DNA of 64,000 nucleotides from a virus (Duplodnaviria > Caudoviricetes), in IMG/VR virus record IMGVR_UViG_3300032167_000004, positions 32,001-96,000 of that record, one strand, 5' to 3'. Position numbers and translations under genes: made by a program. Below the pieces are notes generated by a model. It saw only the letters and a list, made by a program, of their open reading frames with translations, made no database searches and was not told the origin of the DNA. Within the stretch, counting starts at the first letter, position 1, and each line of letters starts with the position of its first letter. Shown here piece after piece: positions 15,858 to 30,617 of the stretch.

Positions 15858-16454
15858 ACTCTCAATATAATAATAAAGATATATACGCTATTTTCAACAT
15901 ATATAATCAGTATTATTATATTGAGAATTTATTTTAATAAGTGTCATACGACAGTCGGGGTGTCTCACTTATTATTGGGCGGTACCAATAATAGATTGAC
16001 CATAAAAAGTGTTTCATACTATAGAAGGTGGATCTAGGTCGCTTAAAACTCGACTATAGCGTCCTGAAATCGTAACTGGTTATAATCAATAGATATAACC
16101 TTGAAGTCATTACTTTTTTGTTTTAGTTATAATTGAAAAATAATAGAAAATAATTTAAAATAAAAAAATAAATTATTTTTAATTACAACTATAACATAAA
16201 ATTAAAAAAGGTAGAAGGGGCCTTTAGATAAGAAAAGAAAAATTCCGGATTGGGGGATCGGGGAAAGAAAAGAAATAAAAAATTATTATTAATAATATAT
16301 TAATATAAATATATAAATAATTAATATAATAATTATATAAATAAATAATATATTAATATAAATAATATTATAATAATATATTATTATAATATTAATATAA
16401 TTATATAAATATATATTATTAATATATTATAATAATATTATATTATTAATAATA
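15858..16454. other. Candidate replication origin / structured intergenic region
   Basis: Lies between divergent genes; several inverted repeats, a G-rich element (GGATTGGGGGATCGGGG), then 182 nt (16273-16454) containing only A and T. Confidence 0.4.
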
Positions 16455-16483: not shown

Positions 16484-16993
16484 ATGAAAAATAAATTATT
16501 AGTATTAAAATCTAAAATTAATAATTCTGTAATAGCTATTACAGAATTTAAATATCATATGAAATTATTTATTCTACAAAATGAATATGATAAAAAAGAT
16601 TATATTCTAAAAGAATATACAGATATATCTAAAGTTAATAAATATTTAATTCAGTATAGTGAAGATTATTATTTAATTGAATATAAAAATTTCATAATTA
16701 GAAATAGTGATAAAAAATATATTGATGAATTAATATATCTATCTAAAAATAATATTAAAGAAACTATCAATAATTTAGATTATATTAATTCTAACTATAT
16801 ACTATCTCCTAAAGAACATATTGAAATATCAAATACTATTAATATATTAACTAATAATATAAAAAAGAAGAATATTGATGAATTCATCAATATTCATTAT
16901 TTAATCAAAAATTTATGTAATAATCATAATATGAAATATGATTTACAGGAATTAAATAATAATTATCAATATAATTTATTAAAAGGAGATTAA
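16484..16993 (+). CDS. Hypothetical protein (N-terminus resembles 22882 and 23358 ORFs)
   Basis: 169 aa; GAGG SD. Confidence 0.7.
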   Translation: MKNKLLVLKSKINNSVIAITEFKYHMKLFILQNEYDKKDYILKEYTDISKVNKYLIQYSEDYYLIEYKNFIIRNSDKKYIDELIYLSKNNIKETINNLDYINSNYILSPKEHIEISNTINILTNNIKKKNIDEFINIHYLIKNLCNNHNMKYDLQELNNNYQYNLLKGD

Positions 16994-17675: not shown

Positions 17676-17723
17676 AAAAATAATACCGAATAGTCTTAAT
17701 TGACTATTCGGTATTATTTTTTT
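17674..17723. terminator. Bidirectional terminator between tmk and the Tas/TIGR transcript
   Basis: A-run + TAATACCGAATAGTC-ttaatt-GACTATTCGGTATTA + T-run. Confidence 0.85.
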
Positions 17724-17755: not shown

Positions 17756-18505
17756 TGATTCATTATTTACTCAACTGGAATTTGATTCATTCTTGGATAT
17801 TGATACTAAAAAAGAGGTGGTATGATTTATTAATATATTTTCAATGTCGTGGTACTATAAAATCATCTGATTCATTGCCATAATATGTTACTATCAGATT
17901 TCTGATTCATTAGAAGAAAATGATATTTTTTGCTTGTCTGGTTTATCATTTTCATAGATTGATACTATATTGATTGATGATTCATTAATATCGCATGATA
18001 CTTTTTGTGGAACCTGATTCATTAATTATTCCTTAGATACTAACTTTAGCAATGATTTTATTAATTTTTTATAGGGATTGATACAATTATGGTGGATGAT
18101 TCATTATGTATCCGTGATACTATGAGGTTTCCTGATTCATTAGGAGGAGACGATACTATAATCATCCTCTTGATTCATTTCAGTTCTCAGATACTAAAAA
18201 TTGACATGATTCATTACACATACTATGATACTAAATCCACAAACTGATTCATTGTTGATTCGTGTTACTATAAACTGCAATGATTCGATTAATTCCACTG
18301 ATACTATACGATGATATGACTCACTATTATTGTATACTACTTTAAGGAAATTTGATTCAGTTATATCTCCCTGATACAATTAGGTGAACTGATTCATTTG
18401 AGCATTTAAGGTACTATCTTTCTTAATGATTCATTAATTTTAATTGATACTATCCCTCCATATGATTCATTTCGGACAATTGATACTATTTTCGTTGATG
18501 ATTAA
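17756..18505 (-). repeat. TIGR-like dual-repeat guide-RNA array 1 (~20 units of ~36 nt)
   Basis: On minus: alternating (A)ATGAATCA and (AT)AGTATCA repeats, each followed by a unique ~9-nt spacer; starts ~25 nt after the Nop-domain gene stop and ends at a terminator. Confidence 0.88.
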
Positions 18506-18530
18506 ATATTATTAAAAAAGTATTTCCGGA

Positions 18531-19484
18531 TTATTCATCCGGAAATACAATTTCTCTATTAGGTGCATGGATAATATGTACATGACCAAGATGATCCTGC
18601 ACAAAAGGATTAGGAGCTTTTGCTCCTCTATCATATTCATACCAAATTTCAAACAAATGACTCAGGAAAATTTTAACTGCAAATCTTTTAGCCATTGCAT
18701 TAATATGAGCAGGAGGAAGCTTACCATTACTATACCACTTATAAGCTTCAGTATCCTTACCATATTTCTTTAACTTCAATTCTTCTGCAGCTTTTTCTGC
18801 AAATCCACCTGCTTCATTTTTAGCTTCATACCAAGACTTCTTTTCTCTATAAAGATGACCATAAATATCATCTTTATTATTAGAAGTTTTTACAAAGGAT
18901 TCACCAAGTTTCCAACACAAAACTCTAAATTTAGGATTCCATGTAATTTTTTGTCCAGCAGTTCTAACTTTACGAGAACCATCCCAGCCAGCATAATTCC
19001 AAATGGAACCTGCAGTATTACATTTTTTAATATCAATATATGCAAGCATACCTGCAGCAATGACAGGACCAACACCCTTGATACTAAGCATCCATTTTCC
19101 GATAGGATGAGATTTTGCATAATAACCAAGGAACTTAGAAATTGTTGTTTCAGTTTCTTTAAACTGGTTTTCAATATATTGAAGATAAACAGGCTGTTCA
19201 CAATCGATAGTATCAACAGATTTTCCATTCTGAATAGCTTCCTCTTTCATCTTCTTCAATTCTTCTCTAGCAACTGCACTTTTACGATTACCAGTTCTAA
19301 TACGAATATCTTGCATATCGTAATATACTTCAATTGCATTACGAATTTCATCATCTTTAATAGGATGCTTTTTAATATCCTTAATAGTCATATTAGCCAC
19401 ATCAAATAAAGGCTCAACCTTATTCTCAATGGTCTTATCCATATCATTCTTGTTGGGGGTCTTCTTAGCTGCACACATAAACAA
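18531..19484 (-). CDS. tasA: TasA-like Nop-domain (IS110/Nop5-related) RNA-guided DNA-binding protein without a recognisable nuclease domain
   Basis: Coiled coil YYDMQDIRIRTGNR; SIKGVGPVIAAGMLAYI...SIWNYAG...WNPKFR...GESF...AKRFAVKIFLSHL; no DEDD RuvC or HNH seen; adjacent dual-repeat array. Confidence 0.82.
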   Translation of the reverse strand: MFMCAAKKTPNKNDMDKTIENKVEPLFDVANMTIKDIKKHPIKDDEIRNAIEVYYDMQDIRIRTGNRKSAVAREELKKMKEEAIQNGKSVDTIDCEQPVYLQYIENQFKETETTISKFLGYYAKSHPIGKWMLSIKGVGPVIAAGMLAYIDIKKCNTAGSIWNYAGWDGSRKVRTAGQKITWNPKFRVLCWKLGESFVKTSNNKDDIYGHLYREKKSWYEAKNEAGGFAEKAAEELKLKKYGKDTEAYKWYSNGKLPPAHINAMAKRFAVKIFLSHLFEIWYEYDRGAKAPNPFVQDHLGHVHIIHAPNREIVFPDE

Positions 19485-19540
19485 AAATTTCCTTTCTTTT
19501 TTGGTTGTTACAATTTTATATATTTGCTTGGATTCATTTA

Positions 19541-19554
19541 AATAATATATATTT
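19541..19554 (-). promoter_or_regulatory. Early promoter motif driving the Tas-TIGR operon
   Basis: AAATATATATTATT on minus, the same motif found before other early gene blocks. Confidence 0.65.
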
Positions 19555-25672: not shown

Positions 25673-25724
25673 TTATATATTATATCAGTATAGTCAAGAA
25701 ACTATAATATTAAAATTTAAGTAG

Positions 25725-28320: not shown

Positions 28321-28995
28321 ATGGCTTGTATTATTAGAATGAGATCTGATGAATTTCTCGATAAATTTATTAAGAAGCATGATTATAAGAAATTTAATTT
28401 TCTATTAATTTCTGAAGATATTAAGACTACGAATCAGTATAAAAATGTATATGCTATTCCATCTTTAATTCCCCCACCTAATATTATTTCTGATTTTATT
28501 CAGGTGGGATATTCCGAGAAATATATTAAAAATTATTTAGATTATATCCAGACTCCTAGAGTCGAAGCAATGATTACAGTTGCCGTTAAACTTGCAATTA
28601 TAGATAACGCCAATGTCGTCTTGATCTGCTCTAAAGCTGAAGATGAATTTAAATATATTGATATTATTTGTCAGTATATTGAAAATATCTATGGGGTTAA
28701 AACTTATAGTTATAAGAAATATAGAAAAGATCCTGAAGCATGTGAAACTATTAATGATAAGGTAAAAAAGAAAGTAGCTAAGGTTCTTGAAAAGAAAATT
28801 GGTGAAATCCAAGATATTGATCCTTATAAAATTCCTCATAAAAAAGAAATTCGTGCATTTGTTAAGCCTCTTGGTAAAAAACAAATGACTAAGATGCTTA
28901 GAGAACACGGCATTAAGCACAATCCTAAAGATTCTAAGAAAGATCTTAAGAAACTTGTTAGTTTAATGATTGCTGAAGGACGTATTAGAGTTTAA
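28321..28995 (+). CDS. Hypothetical protein with C-terminal HeH/SAP-like helix pair
   Basis: 224 aa; LREHGIKHNPKDSKKDLKKL. Confidence 0.7.
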   Translation: MACIIRMRSDEFLDKFIKKHDYKKFNFLLISEDIKTTNQYKNVYAIPSLIPPPNIISDFIQVGYSEKYIKNYLDYIQTPRVEAMITVAVKLAIIDNANVVLICSKAEDEFKYIDIICQYIENIYGVKTYSYKKYRKDPEACETINDKVKKKVAKVLEKKIGEIQDIDPYKIPHKKEIRAFVKPLGKKQMTKMLREHGIKHNPKDSKKDLKKLVSLMIAEGRIRV

Positions 28996-29054
28996 ATATA
29001 TAAGGTACTAGACTTATTTGCCTAGTACCTTATATTTATTAATCAAAAAGTATA

Positions 29055-29776
29055 ATAATATCAATGGAATCACATGAATCAAGGATGCAGATAAATAGTA
29101 TCATACGGGGATAATGAATCATTGACAAGGATCGCATCATTATATTTAAATGAATCATTGAAGATCATTGTGTCATTTTATTGAAATGAATCAGGGTGGA
29201 TTATAGTATCATTTGAGTCTAATGAATCATTTGTCATTATAAAGGTATCAGGATAGTTAAATGAATCGTAATTAGCAGATAGTATCCGATGAATACAATG
29301 AATCAGGGTGACTGAAATTTGTAACATTTGAGCCTAATGAATCATCTTGAATTTATAGAAACATTGAATGGGAATGAATCGACTATGAATAAAGTATCAA
29401 GGAACATGTGAATGAAACATGAACACATAATAGTATCATCAGGTTCTAATGAATCATTACATATAATAGTATCAATGATCTGAACATGAATCATATGACA
29501 ATAAAAAAGTATCAGAATAGATTAATGAATCATGTTATAAAAAAGTATCATATAGGTATCAATGAGCCAGAGTGACTGACAATATGTATCATTCAAGTCT
29601 AGTGAATCGTGTGGGTAAAAGTATCTTGATATGATCAATGAATCATACCATAACAAATAGTATCAATAAATGCTAATGAATCAGTTATTATCATAGTATC
29701 AGTTGTTATGAATAAATCAGGATGCAATAAATATCATCATACTTGAGAAATGAATCAGGTATTGTTATTGAATCAG
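29055..29776 (+). repeat. TIGR-like dual-repeat guide-RNA array 2 (~20 units), orphan (no adjacent tas gene)
   Basis: Same alternating ATGAATCA / AGTATCA repeats with ~9-nt spacers and ~36-39 nt period; bounded by a hairpin (28999-29036) and a terminator. Confidence 0.87.
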
Positions 29777-29787
29777 ATATTAAAATG

Positions 29788-29826
29788 AAATACAGATTAT
29801 CTATATAGATAATCTGTATTTTTTTA
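29788..29826 (+). terminator. Terminator after array 2
   Basis: AATACAGATTATCTATATAGATAATCTGTATT palindrome followed by a T-run. Confidence 0.85.
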
Positions 29827-29861
29827 AATATATATTATTACTTTAATTAGGAGGTGATAAT

Positions 29862-30617
29862 ATGTTATATGAAAAGCATAATTATCTTAATAAAGATATT
29901 GAATATTTAATCAATCAGGAAATTACAGAGTATGATATTAAAAGTGCTGGTTTTAATATTTGTAAAAAATACCATTTGCTAGATGATAAGAAAATAAATC
30001 ATTTAGAATCTTTAGATAAGAAACGTAGACAAATCACATTGGGCTTATATCAACAACATGATCAAGAATTTAAAGAAATTTTAAATTCCAAATTTGTGGA
30101 AGTAAGAAAAGAATTTTTTGAAGCAAATGATTTGAAAGATGAAGATGTATTATCAATAAAGAAAGACGCTATAATAACCCTTAGAAAATGTTATAATACA
30201 GAATTTGATAATATAATATTTTCTGATAAAAATAATTATTCATCTTATTTTTATATAAATAAATTTGAATTTTATATTAATCCCACAATTATACATGTTA
30301 AGGGTATATCTGATGATAAATTAGAATTACATAAAGACTATATGTTAGATTTTCTACATAAAATATTTAGGTTATTTGAAACTAATCCGAATAAGAAATA
30401 TATTATTGATAATATACGAGAATTTATTTCTTATTATAAAGATAAACGATTACATATAGGATATTATAGAGAATTAAATAAAGATTCTTTATATAAATTA
30501 AATAGATCATTTATACACGATTATATAGGATTGCAACATGTAAATTCATTAGAGAATATTGATATTTCTTATAATTATATGAAATACATTATTCCTATAA
30601 TTAATATTTTATTATAA
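29862..30617 (+). CDS. Family B DNA polymerase-like palm fragment
   Basis: EYDIKSA, SIKKDAI and HVKG motifs; early promoter motif at 29826-29839. Confidence 0.55.
   Translation: MLYEKHNYLNKDIEYLINQEITEYDIKSAGFNICKKYHLLDDKKINHLESLDKKRRQITLGLYQQHDQEFKEILNSKFVEVRKEFFEANDLKDEDVLSIKKDAIITLRKCYNTEFDNIIFSDKNNYSSYFYINKFEFYINPTIIHVKGISDDKLELHKDYMLDFLHKIFRLFETNPNKKYIIDNIREFISYYKDKRLHIGYYRELNKDSLYKLNRSFIHDYIGLQHVNSLENIDISYNYMKYIIPIINILL

Follow-up and report, generated by a model that had tools for sequence, protein, structure and literature searches.

A second TIGR array far from the single tasA gene of a phage, and dispersed arrays in its relatives

In dual-repeat TIGR arrays, repeats of 8–12 nt alternate with 9-nt spacers A and B, the first edge repeat is truncated at its 5' end, and the array closes with a 3'-truncated edge and a rho-independent terminator (Faure et al. 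2025, PMC12045711). According to the same study, a box D G and a box C C anchor each spacer, and the corresponding motifs, UG and CCA, may diverge but covary between both repeats. TasA was described as an RNA-guided repressor, and the published dual-repeat guides have a fixed length of 36 nt (Xu et al. 2026, bioRxiv 10.64898/2026.09.09.750476). SpTasH cuts its own precursor by means of Y289 and H296 (PMC13421893), and this Y/H processing dyad was reported to be conserved across dual-repeat systems. Published arrays have been placed before or after tas, on both sides of it or within it; the 2025 survey looked no further than 5 kb around this gene, and the 2026 survey no further than 10 kb. The literature treats the natural targets of TIGR-Tas systems and the origin and change of their arrays as open questions, and we found no mention of orphan or distant TIGR arrays in the searchable literature.

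The window analyzed here is a stretch of 64,000 nt from a phage genome (positions 32,001 to 96,000 of IMG/VR record IMGVR_UViG_3300032167_000004). One of its two arrays, array 2, resembles those of dual-repeat TIGR-TasA systems, such as FpTasA of Flavonifractor plautii, in its repeats, its pairs of 9-nt spacers, its period of about 36 nt, its box D-like G and box C-like TCA, and its truncated edges and terminator; like those systems, it belongs to a phage, is accompanied by a solo Nop-domain effector and lacks adaptation genes. Unlike in the published TIGR-TasA systems, half of the guides of this phage, and up to 81% in its relatives, reside in arrays 6–151 kb away, which lie on either strand among unrelated genes; moreover, unit length is less uniform than the published 36 nt, and TasA has Phe in place of the catalytic Tyr. 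Orphan CRISPR arrays and phage mini-arrays are comparable in that an array without an effector is matched by its repeat to a distant effector used in trans, but in the system described here the effector is a Nop-domain protein, the guides are split into 9+9 nt and there is no PAM, and in place of leader-polarized acquisition by Cas1-Cas2, growth appears to proceed by duplication and exchange of units. The archaeal box C/D sRNA genes (Nop5-fibrillarin-L7Ae) provide another parallel, since many dispersed guide genes are served in trans by one Nop-domain protein and the RNA has a two-guide layout with similar box C/D-like anchors; however, box C/D sRNAs direct the methylation of RNA and depend on K-turns and L7Ae, whereas TIGR units are minimal, tandem and guide DNA binding. 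The TIGR-TasA system itself is thus already known, and within the searchable literature it is the far-off orphan arrays that appear to be the new aspect.

Anatomy of the second array

A reading of the window made from the letters alone (the sequence-only reading) had noticed about 20 alternating units at 29055–29776. A careful parse bore this out and extended the array slightly, to 29038–29792 (+ strand) and about 21 units. Each unit runs from the edge repeat, (A)ATGAATCA, through the 9-nt spacer A to the loop repeat AGTATCA, that is (A)TAGTATCA, and the 9-nt spacer B, which gives a period of about 36 nt in which both repeats are set apart by spacers of about 9 nt, a canonical dual-repeat TIGR layout. 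Both repeats carry box-like motifs, a G at position 3 and a terminal TCA. The period varies from 35 to 40 nt, 36–37 nt being commonest; exactly 36 nt was found in 6–7 of about 20 units, and about four loops have two mismatches. Conservation per position was 74–100% in the repeats, as against 32–58% in the spacers. A search of the entire + strand (263,786 bp) for exact copies of ATGAATCA gave 19, of which 13 lay within array 2, which makes up 0.29% of the genome (binomial P = 2.6e-29).

The same edge and loop repeats are found in array 1, the tas-adjacent array of about 20 units on the opposite strand (17756–18513, −); the edges are exact in 13/20 cases in array 1 and in 13/19 in array 2. The spacers of the two arrays differ, the closest pair still having mismatches at 6 of 18 positions, in agreement with the earlier view that the repeats are common to both loci and the spacers are not.

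Array 2 had been placed between two hairpins, and both of these fold far better than shuffled sequence. The upstream hairpin (28999–29036, +; −18.8 kcal/mol, z −6.2) is the terminator of the gene at 28321–28995 and may be leaky, because its T-tract is interrupted. Immediately 3' of it, the array opens with the 5'-truncated edge ATTAATCA. The stretch 29038–29073 had been taken for a leader, a reading that has to be given up, since it is the 36-nt first unit of the array. At the other end, the 3'-truncated edge AATGAAATA forms part of the 5' arm of the stem of the closing rho-independent terminator (29788–29826, +; −18.4 kcal/mol, z −5.8), in which the hairpin is followed by seven T. An Rfam search of this stretch returned no family. 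Array 2 is almost certainly a genuine TIGR array.

Two units are of particular concern below. The unit at 29298–29336 (+) has the guide GGGTGACTG / TTTGAGCCT and a length of 39 nt, and it is present within the array as three diverged copies, at 29186, 29298 and 29562. The unit that follows it (29337–29373, +; 37 nt) has the guide TCTTGAATT / TTGAATGGG. The array is unchanged in three full-length assemblies from different samples (L235–L237). Three further independent assemblies (L238–L240) begin inside the array, at about 29350–29377, and match its 3' half with 0–2 mismatches; these contig ends probably represent assembly breaks at the repeated units.

The single tasA gene and loading of distant guides

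The phage genome (263,786 bp, 28% GC, CheckV completeness 100%) was recovered from animal faeces and bovine gut metagenomes and belongs to a jumbo phage of the animal gut; megablast against deposited phages gave no match. Translated in six frames and searched with TasA, a profile built from ten Tas relatives and the Pfam Nop model, the genome yielded one tas gene. The gene, tasA (18531–19478, −), has an open reading frame that opens with TTG at 19484, but it is the ATG at 19478 that follows a ribosome-binding site. It is preceded by a match to the phage promoter motif TATATATTAT (19542–19551, −) and ends in a hairpin with T6 (18520–18548, −) that lies between tasA and array 1; array 1 is in turn closed by a bidirectional terminator (17676–17721, −). 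Directly after the promoter motif, the leader of tasA contains TTAAATGAATCC (19530–19541, −), a near-copy of the edge repeat AATGAATCA, which could be a candidate site for autoregulatory binding of TasA or could be due to chance.

TasA (315–317 aa) has a Nop/IS110-type RNA-binding fold homologous to TasR and TasH. Its sequence matched TasR (9mty, 1.2e-28) and TasH in phmmer and profile searches, and its AF2 model (pLDDT 82) is all-helical, with TasH and TasR as the best Foldseek hits and IS621-type recombinases next. A Pfam search found neither an HNH nor a RuvC nuclease domain, so that the protein is of the solo TasA type. Loci of TasA relatives with 40–58% identity carry equal repeats.

The distance from array 2 to the 5' end of tasA is 9.6 kb, and ten unrelated open reading frames lie between them. 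Array 2 is therefore not tas-adjacent, and the tas gene with matching repeats is present in the same genome. The genes on either side of array 2 (28321–28995 and 29862–30617) match no Pfam family, and profile comparison does not relate them to Tas (hhalign probability 0.1%), which upholds the earlier statement that no Nop gene adjoins the array. The proposal of a single TasA also stands, and the suggested scan of the rest of the genome for further arrays, carried out by motif counts together with a repeat-agnostic periodicity scan, yielded array 1, array 2 and nothing further. Acquisition machinery was not evident, which agrees with the literature.

The source of an array 2 transcript was considered in the light of the phage promoter motif. 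The motif, (TTAAA)TATATATTAT, has 66 copies genome-wide, mostly 20–60 nt before a ribosome-binding site; examples lie at 25674, 29829 and 36827 (+) and at 19551 (−) of the window. The copy at 29829–29838 (+) belongs to the downstream gene 29862–30617 and marks the end of the array module. No copy precedes array 2, which directly abuts the terminator of the upstream gene; the nearest upstream copy on the + strand, at 25674, heads the operon that ends at 28995. A scan for sigma-70-type promoters gave matches no more frequent than in shuffled sequence. The element TATAATAATAT at 29051 had been a candidate for the array 2 promoter; it was rejected because it lies within the first unit and because the true phage motif is TATATATTAT.

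Transcription of the + strand of array 2 would, since no TATATATTAT copy precedes it, likely come from read-through of the operon starting at 25674, past the leaky hairpin at 28999–29036, or else from a weak TATAAT-type start that lies within the first unit or shortly ahead of it. Cleavage of the transcript inside its edge repeats would then release guides of about 36–40 nt, to be loaded in trans onto dimers of the single TasA. The resulting complexes would bind DNA sites composed of the spacer A sequence and then the reverse-complemented spacer B, where they would block transcription or replication; binding and blocking, as with other TasA proteins (Xu et al. 2026), is the expected activity, since this TasA has no nuclease domain. 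Because there are one tas gene and two arrays, and because the neighbors of array 2 are unrelated to Tas, we consider loading in trans to be the best reading, and from the sequence data it is likely that array 2 is expressed and serves TasA in this manner. The equality of the repeats makes it the economical reading that one TasA is shared by about 40 guides.

How the precursor would be processed is a separate matter. His301 of TasA aligns with H296 of SpTasH, but Phe294 aligns with the catalytic Tyr289, and the Y/H dyad is thus incomplete; in the alignment of relatives (A1), this position is Phe in the five closest and Tyr in four more distant proteins. Since Phe replaces the catalytic Tyr, processing by TasA alone should not be assumed, and self-processing by the published mechanism is doubtful. 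Loading in trans is independent of this difference. In addition, some units of array 2 may be dead, because published guides have a fixed length of 36 nt while only 6–7 of about 20 units here conform to it.

Dispersed arrays in related phages

An edge-loop-edge scan with this repeat pair found 34 loci in viral contigs, often several per contig, and a control pattern read backwards gave 0–1 matches per genome. Four phages were fully examined, namely the phage under study (G000) and three relatives (G001, G002 and G005). G001 (247 kb, complete) has one tas gene, at 209.1 kb, and five arrays, situated at 57.8 kb (5 units), 85.4–87.1 kb (41 units), 153.2 kb (7 units), 207.8 kb (15 units, adjacent to tas) and 226.2 kb (12 units); its arrays lie up to 151 kb from tas, and 65 of its 80 guides are in orphan arrays. 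In G002 (299 kb; tas at 263.1 kb), arrays of 11, 12 and 12 units are located at 245.4, 252.2 and 262.5 kb, the last being the adjacent one. G005 (320 kb; tas at 196.8 kb) has an adjacent array of 12 units at 197.7 kb and one of 18 units at 203.9 kb. Orphan arrays hold the majority of guides in all three relatives (up to 81%) and about half of them in G000. A further phage, G006 (141 kb, complete; L011, L007, L017 and L234), has its tas gene at 86.6 kb with no adjacent array; its sole arrays (about 2.9 kb in all) are at 74.0–76.9 kb, about 10 kb off.

All 12 arrays of the four examined phages start with a 5'-truncated edge, and all 12 end in a truncated edge and a terminator. Dispersed arrays are typical of this phage clade. 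The proposal that arrays relocate and expand independently of tas is in accord with these inventories, in which the relatives have two to five arrays at different places, and with the empty site in the syntenic genome of G001 (see below).

What makes these loci interesting is not so much the second array itself as the dispersal across the clade, together with the clues to array evolution. The inventories of the relatives indicate that an RNA-guided TIGR system can keep the greater part of its guides a long way from the effector gene. If it is true that some phages keep most guides tens of kilobases to 150 kb away, catalogues built from 5–10 kb around tas undercount guides, and tas genes classed as "arrayless" may have distant arrays.

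Some features of the relatives were recorded in passing. The 41-unit orphan array of G001 (85,403–87,064; L031) has a TATATATTAT motif directly upstream. The Tas open reading frame of G001 (L036:4629–6062, −) carries a C-terminal extension of about 175 aa, and that of G005 (L026:7254–8525, +) an N-terminal extension of about 150 aa; G000 TasA has no counterpart of either.

History of the site and turnover of guides

The genome of G001 is syntenic with the window over 12.9–36.8 kb, and between its homologues of the genes that flank array 2 there is only a terminator and about 70 bp. The site was followed in other lineages by means of the downstream protein. Arrays are present in L241 (79% identical protein; at least 22 units) and L242 (75%; about 19 units), and there is no array at the site in L243 (77%), L246 (73%), L247 (64%) and L248 (62%). 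In L245 (74%), the site (L245:2169–2411) is taken up by a gene for 80 aa with a Pfam Hfq domain. One branch of the downstream-protein tree, which is poorly resolved, separates the array-bearing lineages (G000, L241 and L242) from the others in 96% of bootstrap trees, and this fits a single old gain; the array in these three lineages was probably acquired once by their ancestor. It has been kept at the site since the lineages diverged to about 75% protein identity. That array 2 might be a recent relocation or fresh copy of array 1 was rejected because orthologous arrays occupy the site in lineages whose neighboring proteins are 75–79% identical. By the same evidence, array 2 has long resided at this position, which is variable and is bounded by a terminator and a promoter.

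The comparison of presence and spacer turnover among relatives that had been suggested earlier thus revealed a site with and without an array, and the guides of the three orthologous arrays turned out to be almost wholly different. A few guides were retained. L242 keeps a unit, GGGTGACTA / TTTGAGACT, that has the 39-nt length of the 29298 unit of G000 and differs from its guide at 2 of 18 positions; the L242 array also has a terminal unit related to that of array 2. Among the 182 guides of the four examined phages, six pairs differ at no more than 3 of 18 positions, and a swapped-spacer control gave none below 4. One guide of G002 is identical in its distal and tas-adjacent arrays. The guide of the 29337 unit of G000 recurs with one mismatch in 18, and with its 37-nt unit length unchanged, in the distal array of G005, a phage that is not syntenic with G000 and whose TasA is only about 48% identical.

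These observations bear on the possibility that array 2 is a relic, a TIGR array copy that has fallen out of use and is decaying in a variable region between genes. A relic might have unit lengths of 35–40 nt, several degenerate loops and no upstream TATATATTAT motif, as array 2 does, and the site looks dispensable because nothing occupies it in five relatives. Array 1, next to tas, is equally irregular, however, and array 2 has intact truncated ends and an intact terminator, and its spacers are much more variable than box C (TCA) and the repeats. Moreover, the persistence of the array across lineages with 75–79% protein identity, the conservation of individual guides, and the guide held in common with the phage encoding the ~48% identical TasA all argue against decay, and we regard a relic as unlikely.

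The conserved single guides also weigh on a second explanation, in which the array 2 RNAs titrate TasA in the manner of a sponge or timer, or in which the first unit and hairpin have some other regulatory role. The position of the array downstream of another operon, and on the strand opposite to tasA and array 1, would suit such a role. But the units of array 2 are indistinguishable from guide units, and the conservation of individual guides argues for selection on spacer sequence, not just on the number of repeats, so that titration seems very improbable.

It is hardly to be expected that array 2 has a cognate protein of its own, encoded at another place in the phage or by its host: although no tas gene adjoins the array, its repeats equal those of the tas-adjacent array, the six-frame, ten-sequence profile and Pfam Nop searches arrived at one gene in the complete genome, and an edge-loop-edge scan of 185,579 bacterial and archaeal species genomes showed the repeat pair to be absent from them. 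Equally remote is the idea that the repeats act as DNA (iterons, centromere-like or protein-binding sites) and not as RNA, for while regularly spaced short repeats are also typical of iterons and partition sites and some TasA loci are linked to ParB-like genes, here two different repeats alternate with hypervariable 9-nt spacers in a strand-specific layout, with a truncated edge at each end and a 3' terminator in 12/12 arrays, identical to that of arrays experimentally shown to be transcribed and processed.

Returning to guides that would be loaded in trans onto a single TasA, we asked how their arrays change. Within the 41-unit array of G001, a block of some 13 units is present twice (about 500 nt, 80% identity). 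Seven exact half-spacers are common to different arrays, compared with 0.85 expected, and this sharing mostly reflects duplicates of whole units. In array 1 of a bovine strain with about 95% identity, 15 of the 20 substitutions listed fall in spacers, which account for 48% of positions. Comparison among the phages shows arrays that sit as cargo at terminator/promoter junctions, grow by segmental duplication and exchange single units with one another, while their guide content turns over almost completely and few guides are retained.

Combined with the inventories, these findings lead to a tentative overall picture, one that we hold to be possible as a whole but would not yet call probable. In it, in this clade of gut jumbo phages, one TasA would be served by up to five separate arrays, with up to 80 guides, scattered over the genome; the arrays would evolve without acquisition machinery, inserting at terminator/promoter junctions and changing by block duplication, by unit swaps between arrays and between phages, and by divergence through point mutation; and the few guides that stay constant for long would mark biologically important targets. 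The site with and without an array, the orthologous arrays with almost complete guide turnover, the identical guides in two arrays of one genome and the block duplication are clues to how guides evolve without acquisition, and the long-conserved guides provide a short list for target hunting.

The search for targets assumed a site in which spacer A precedes the reverse complement of spacer B at a gap of 0–2 bp, a geometry deduced from where the published cuts fall and from the 3' overhangs they leave; it yielded a target for none of the guides. The phage itself has no such site with 0–1 mismatch, and the counts at 2–3 mismatches equaled those obtained with three control geometries and with shuffled pairs. 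Likewise, a search with all guides of the four phages against all four genomes yielded no site with 0–1 mismatch and counts at the control level. The two conserved guides, searched against viral contigs and species genomes, produced only scattered matches in unrelated contexts, as is expected for words of 17–18 nt and was already remarked by Xu et al. A cluster of matches in oral streptococci was discarded as a target, since it does not fit an animal-gut phage of 28% GC.

Two details of the window around array 1 complete the description. The array 1 unit at 18178 has the spacers AGAGGATGA and TCTCCTCCT (18146–18154 and 18170–18178), and its second spacer differs at four of nine bases in the ~95%-identical bovine-gut strain, which is the densest cluster of differences in array 1. 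Extremely AT-rich tandem repeats with several nested periods occupy 16287–16454, just upstream of the gene at 16484–16993.
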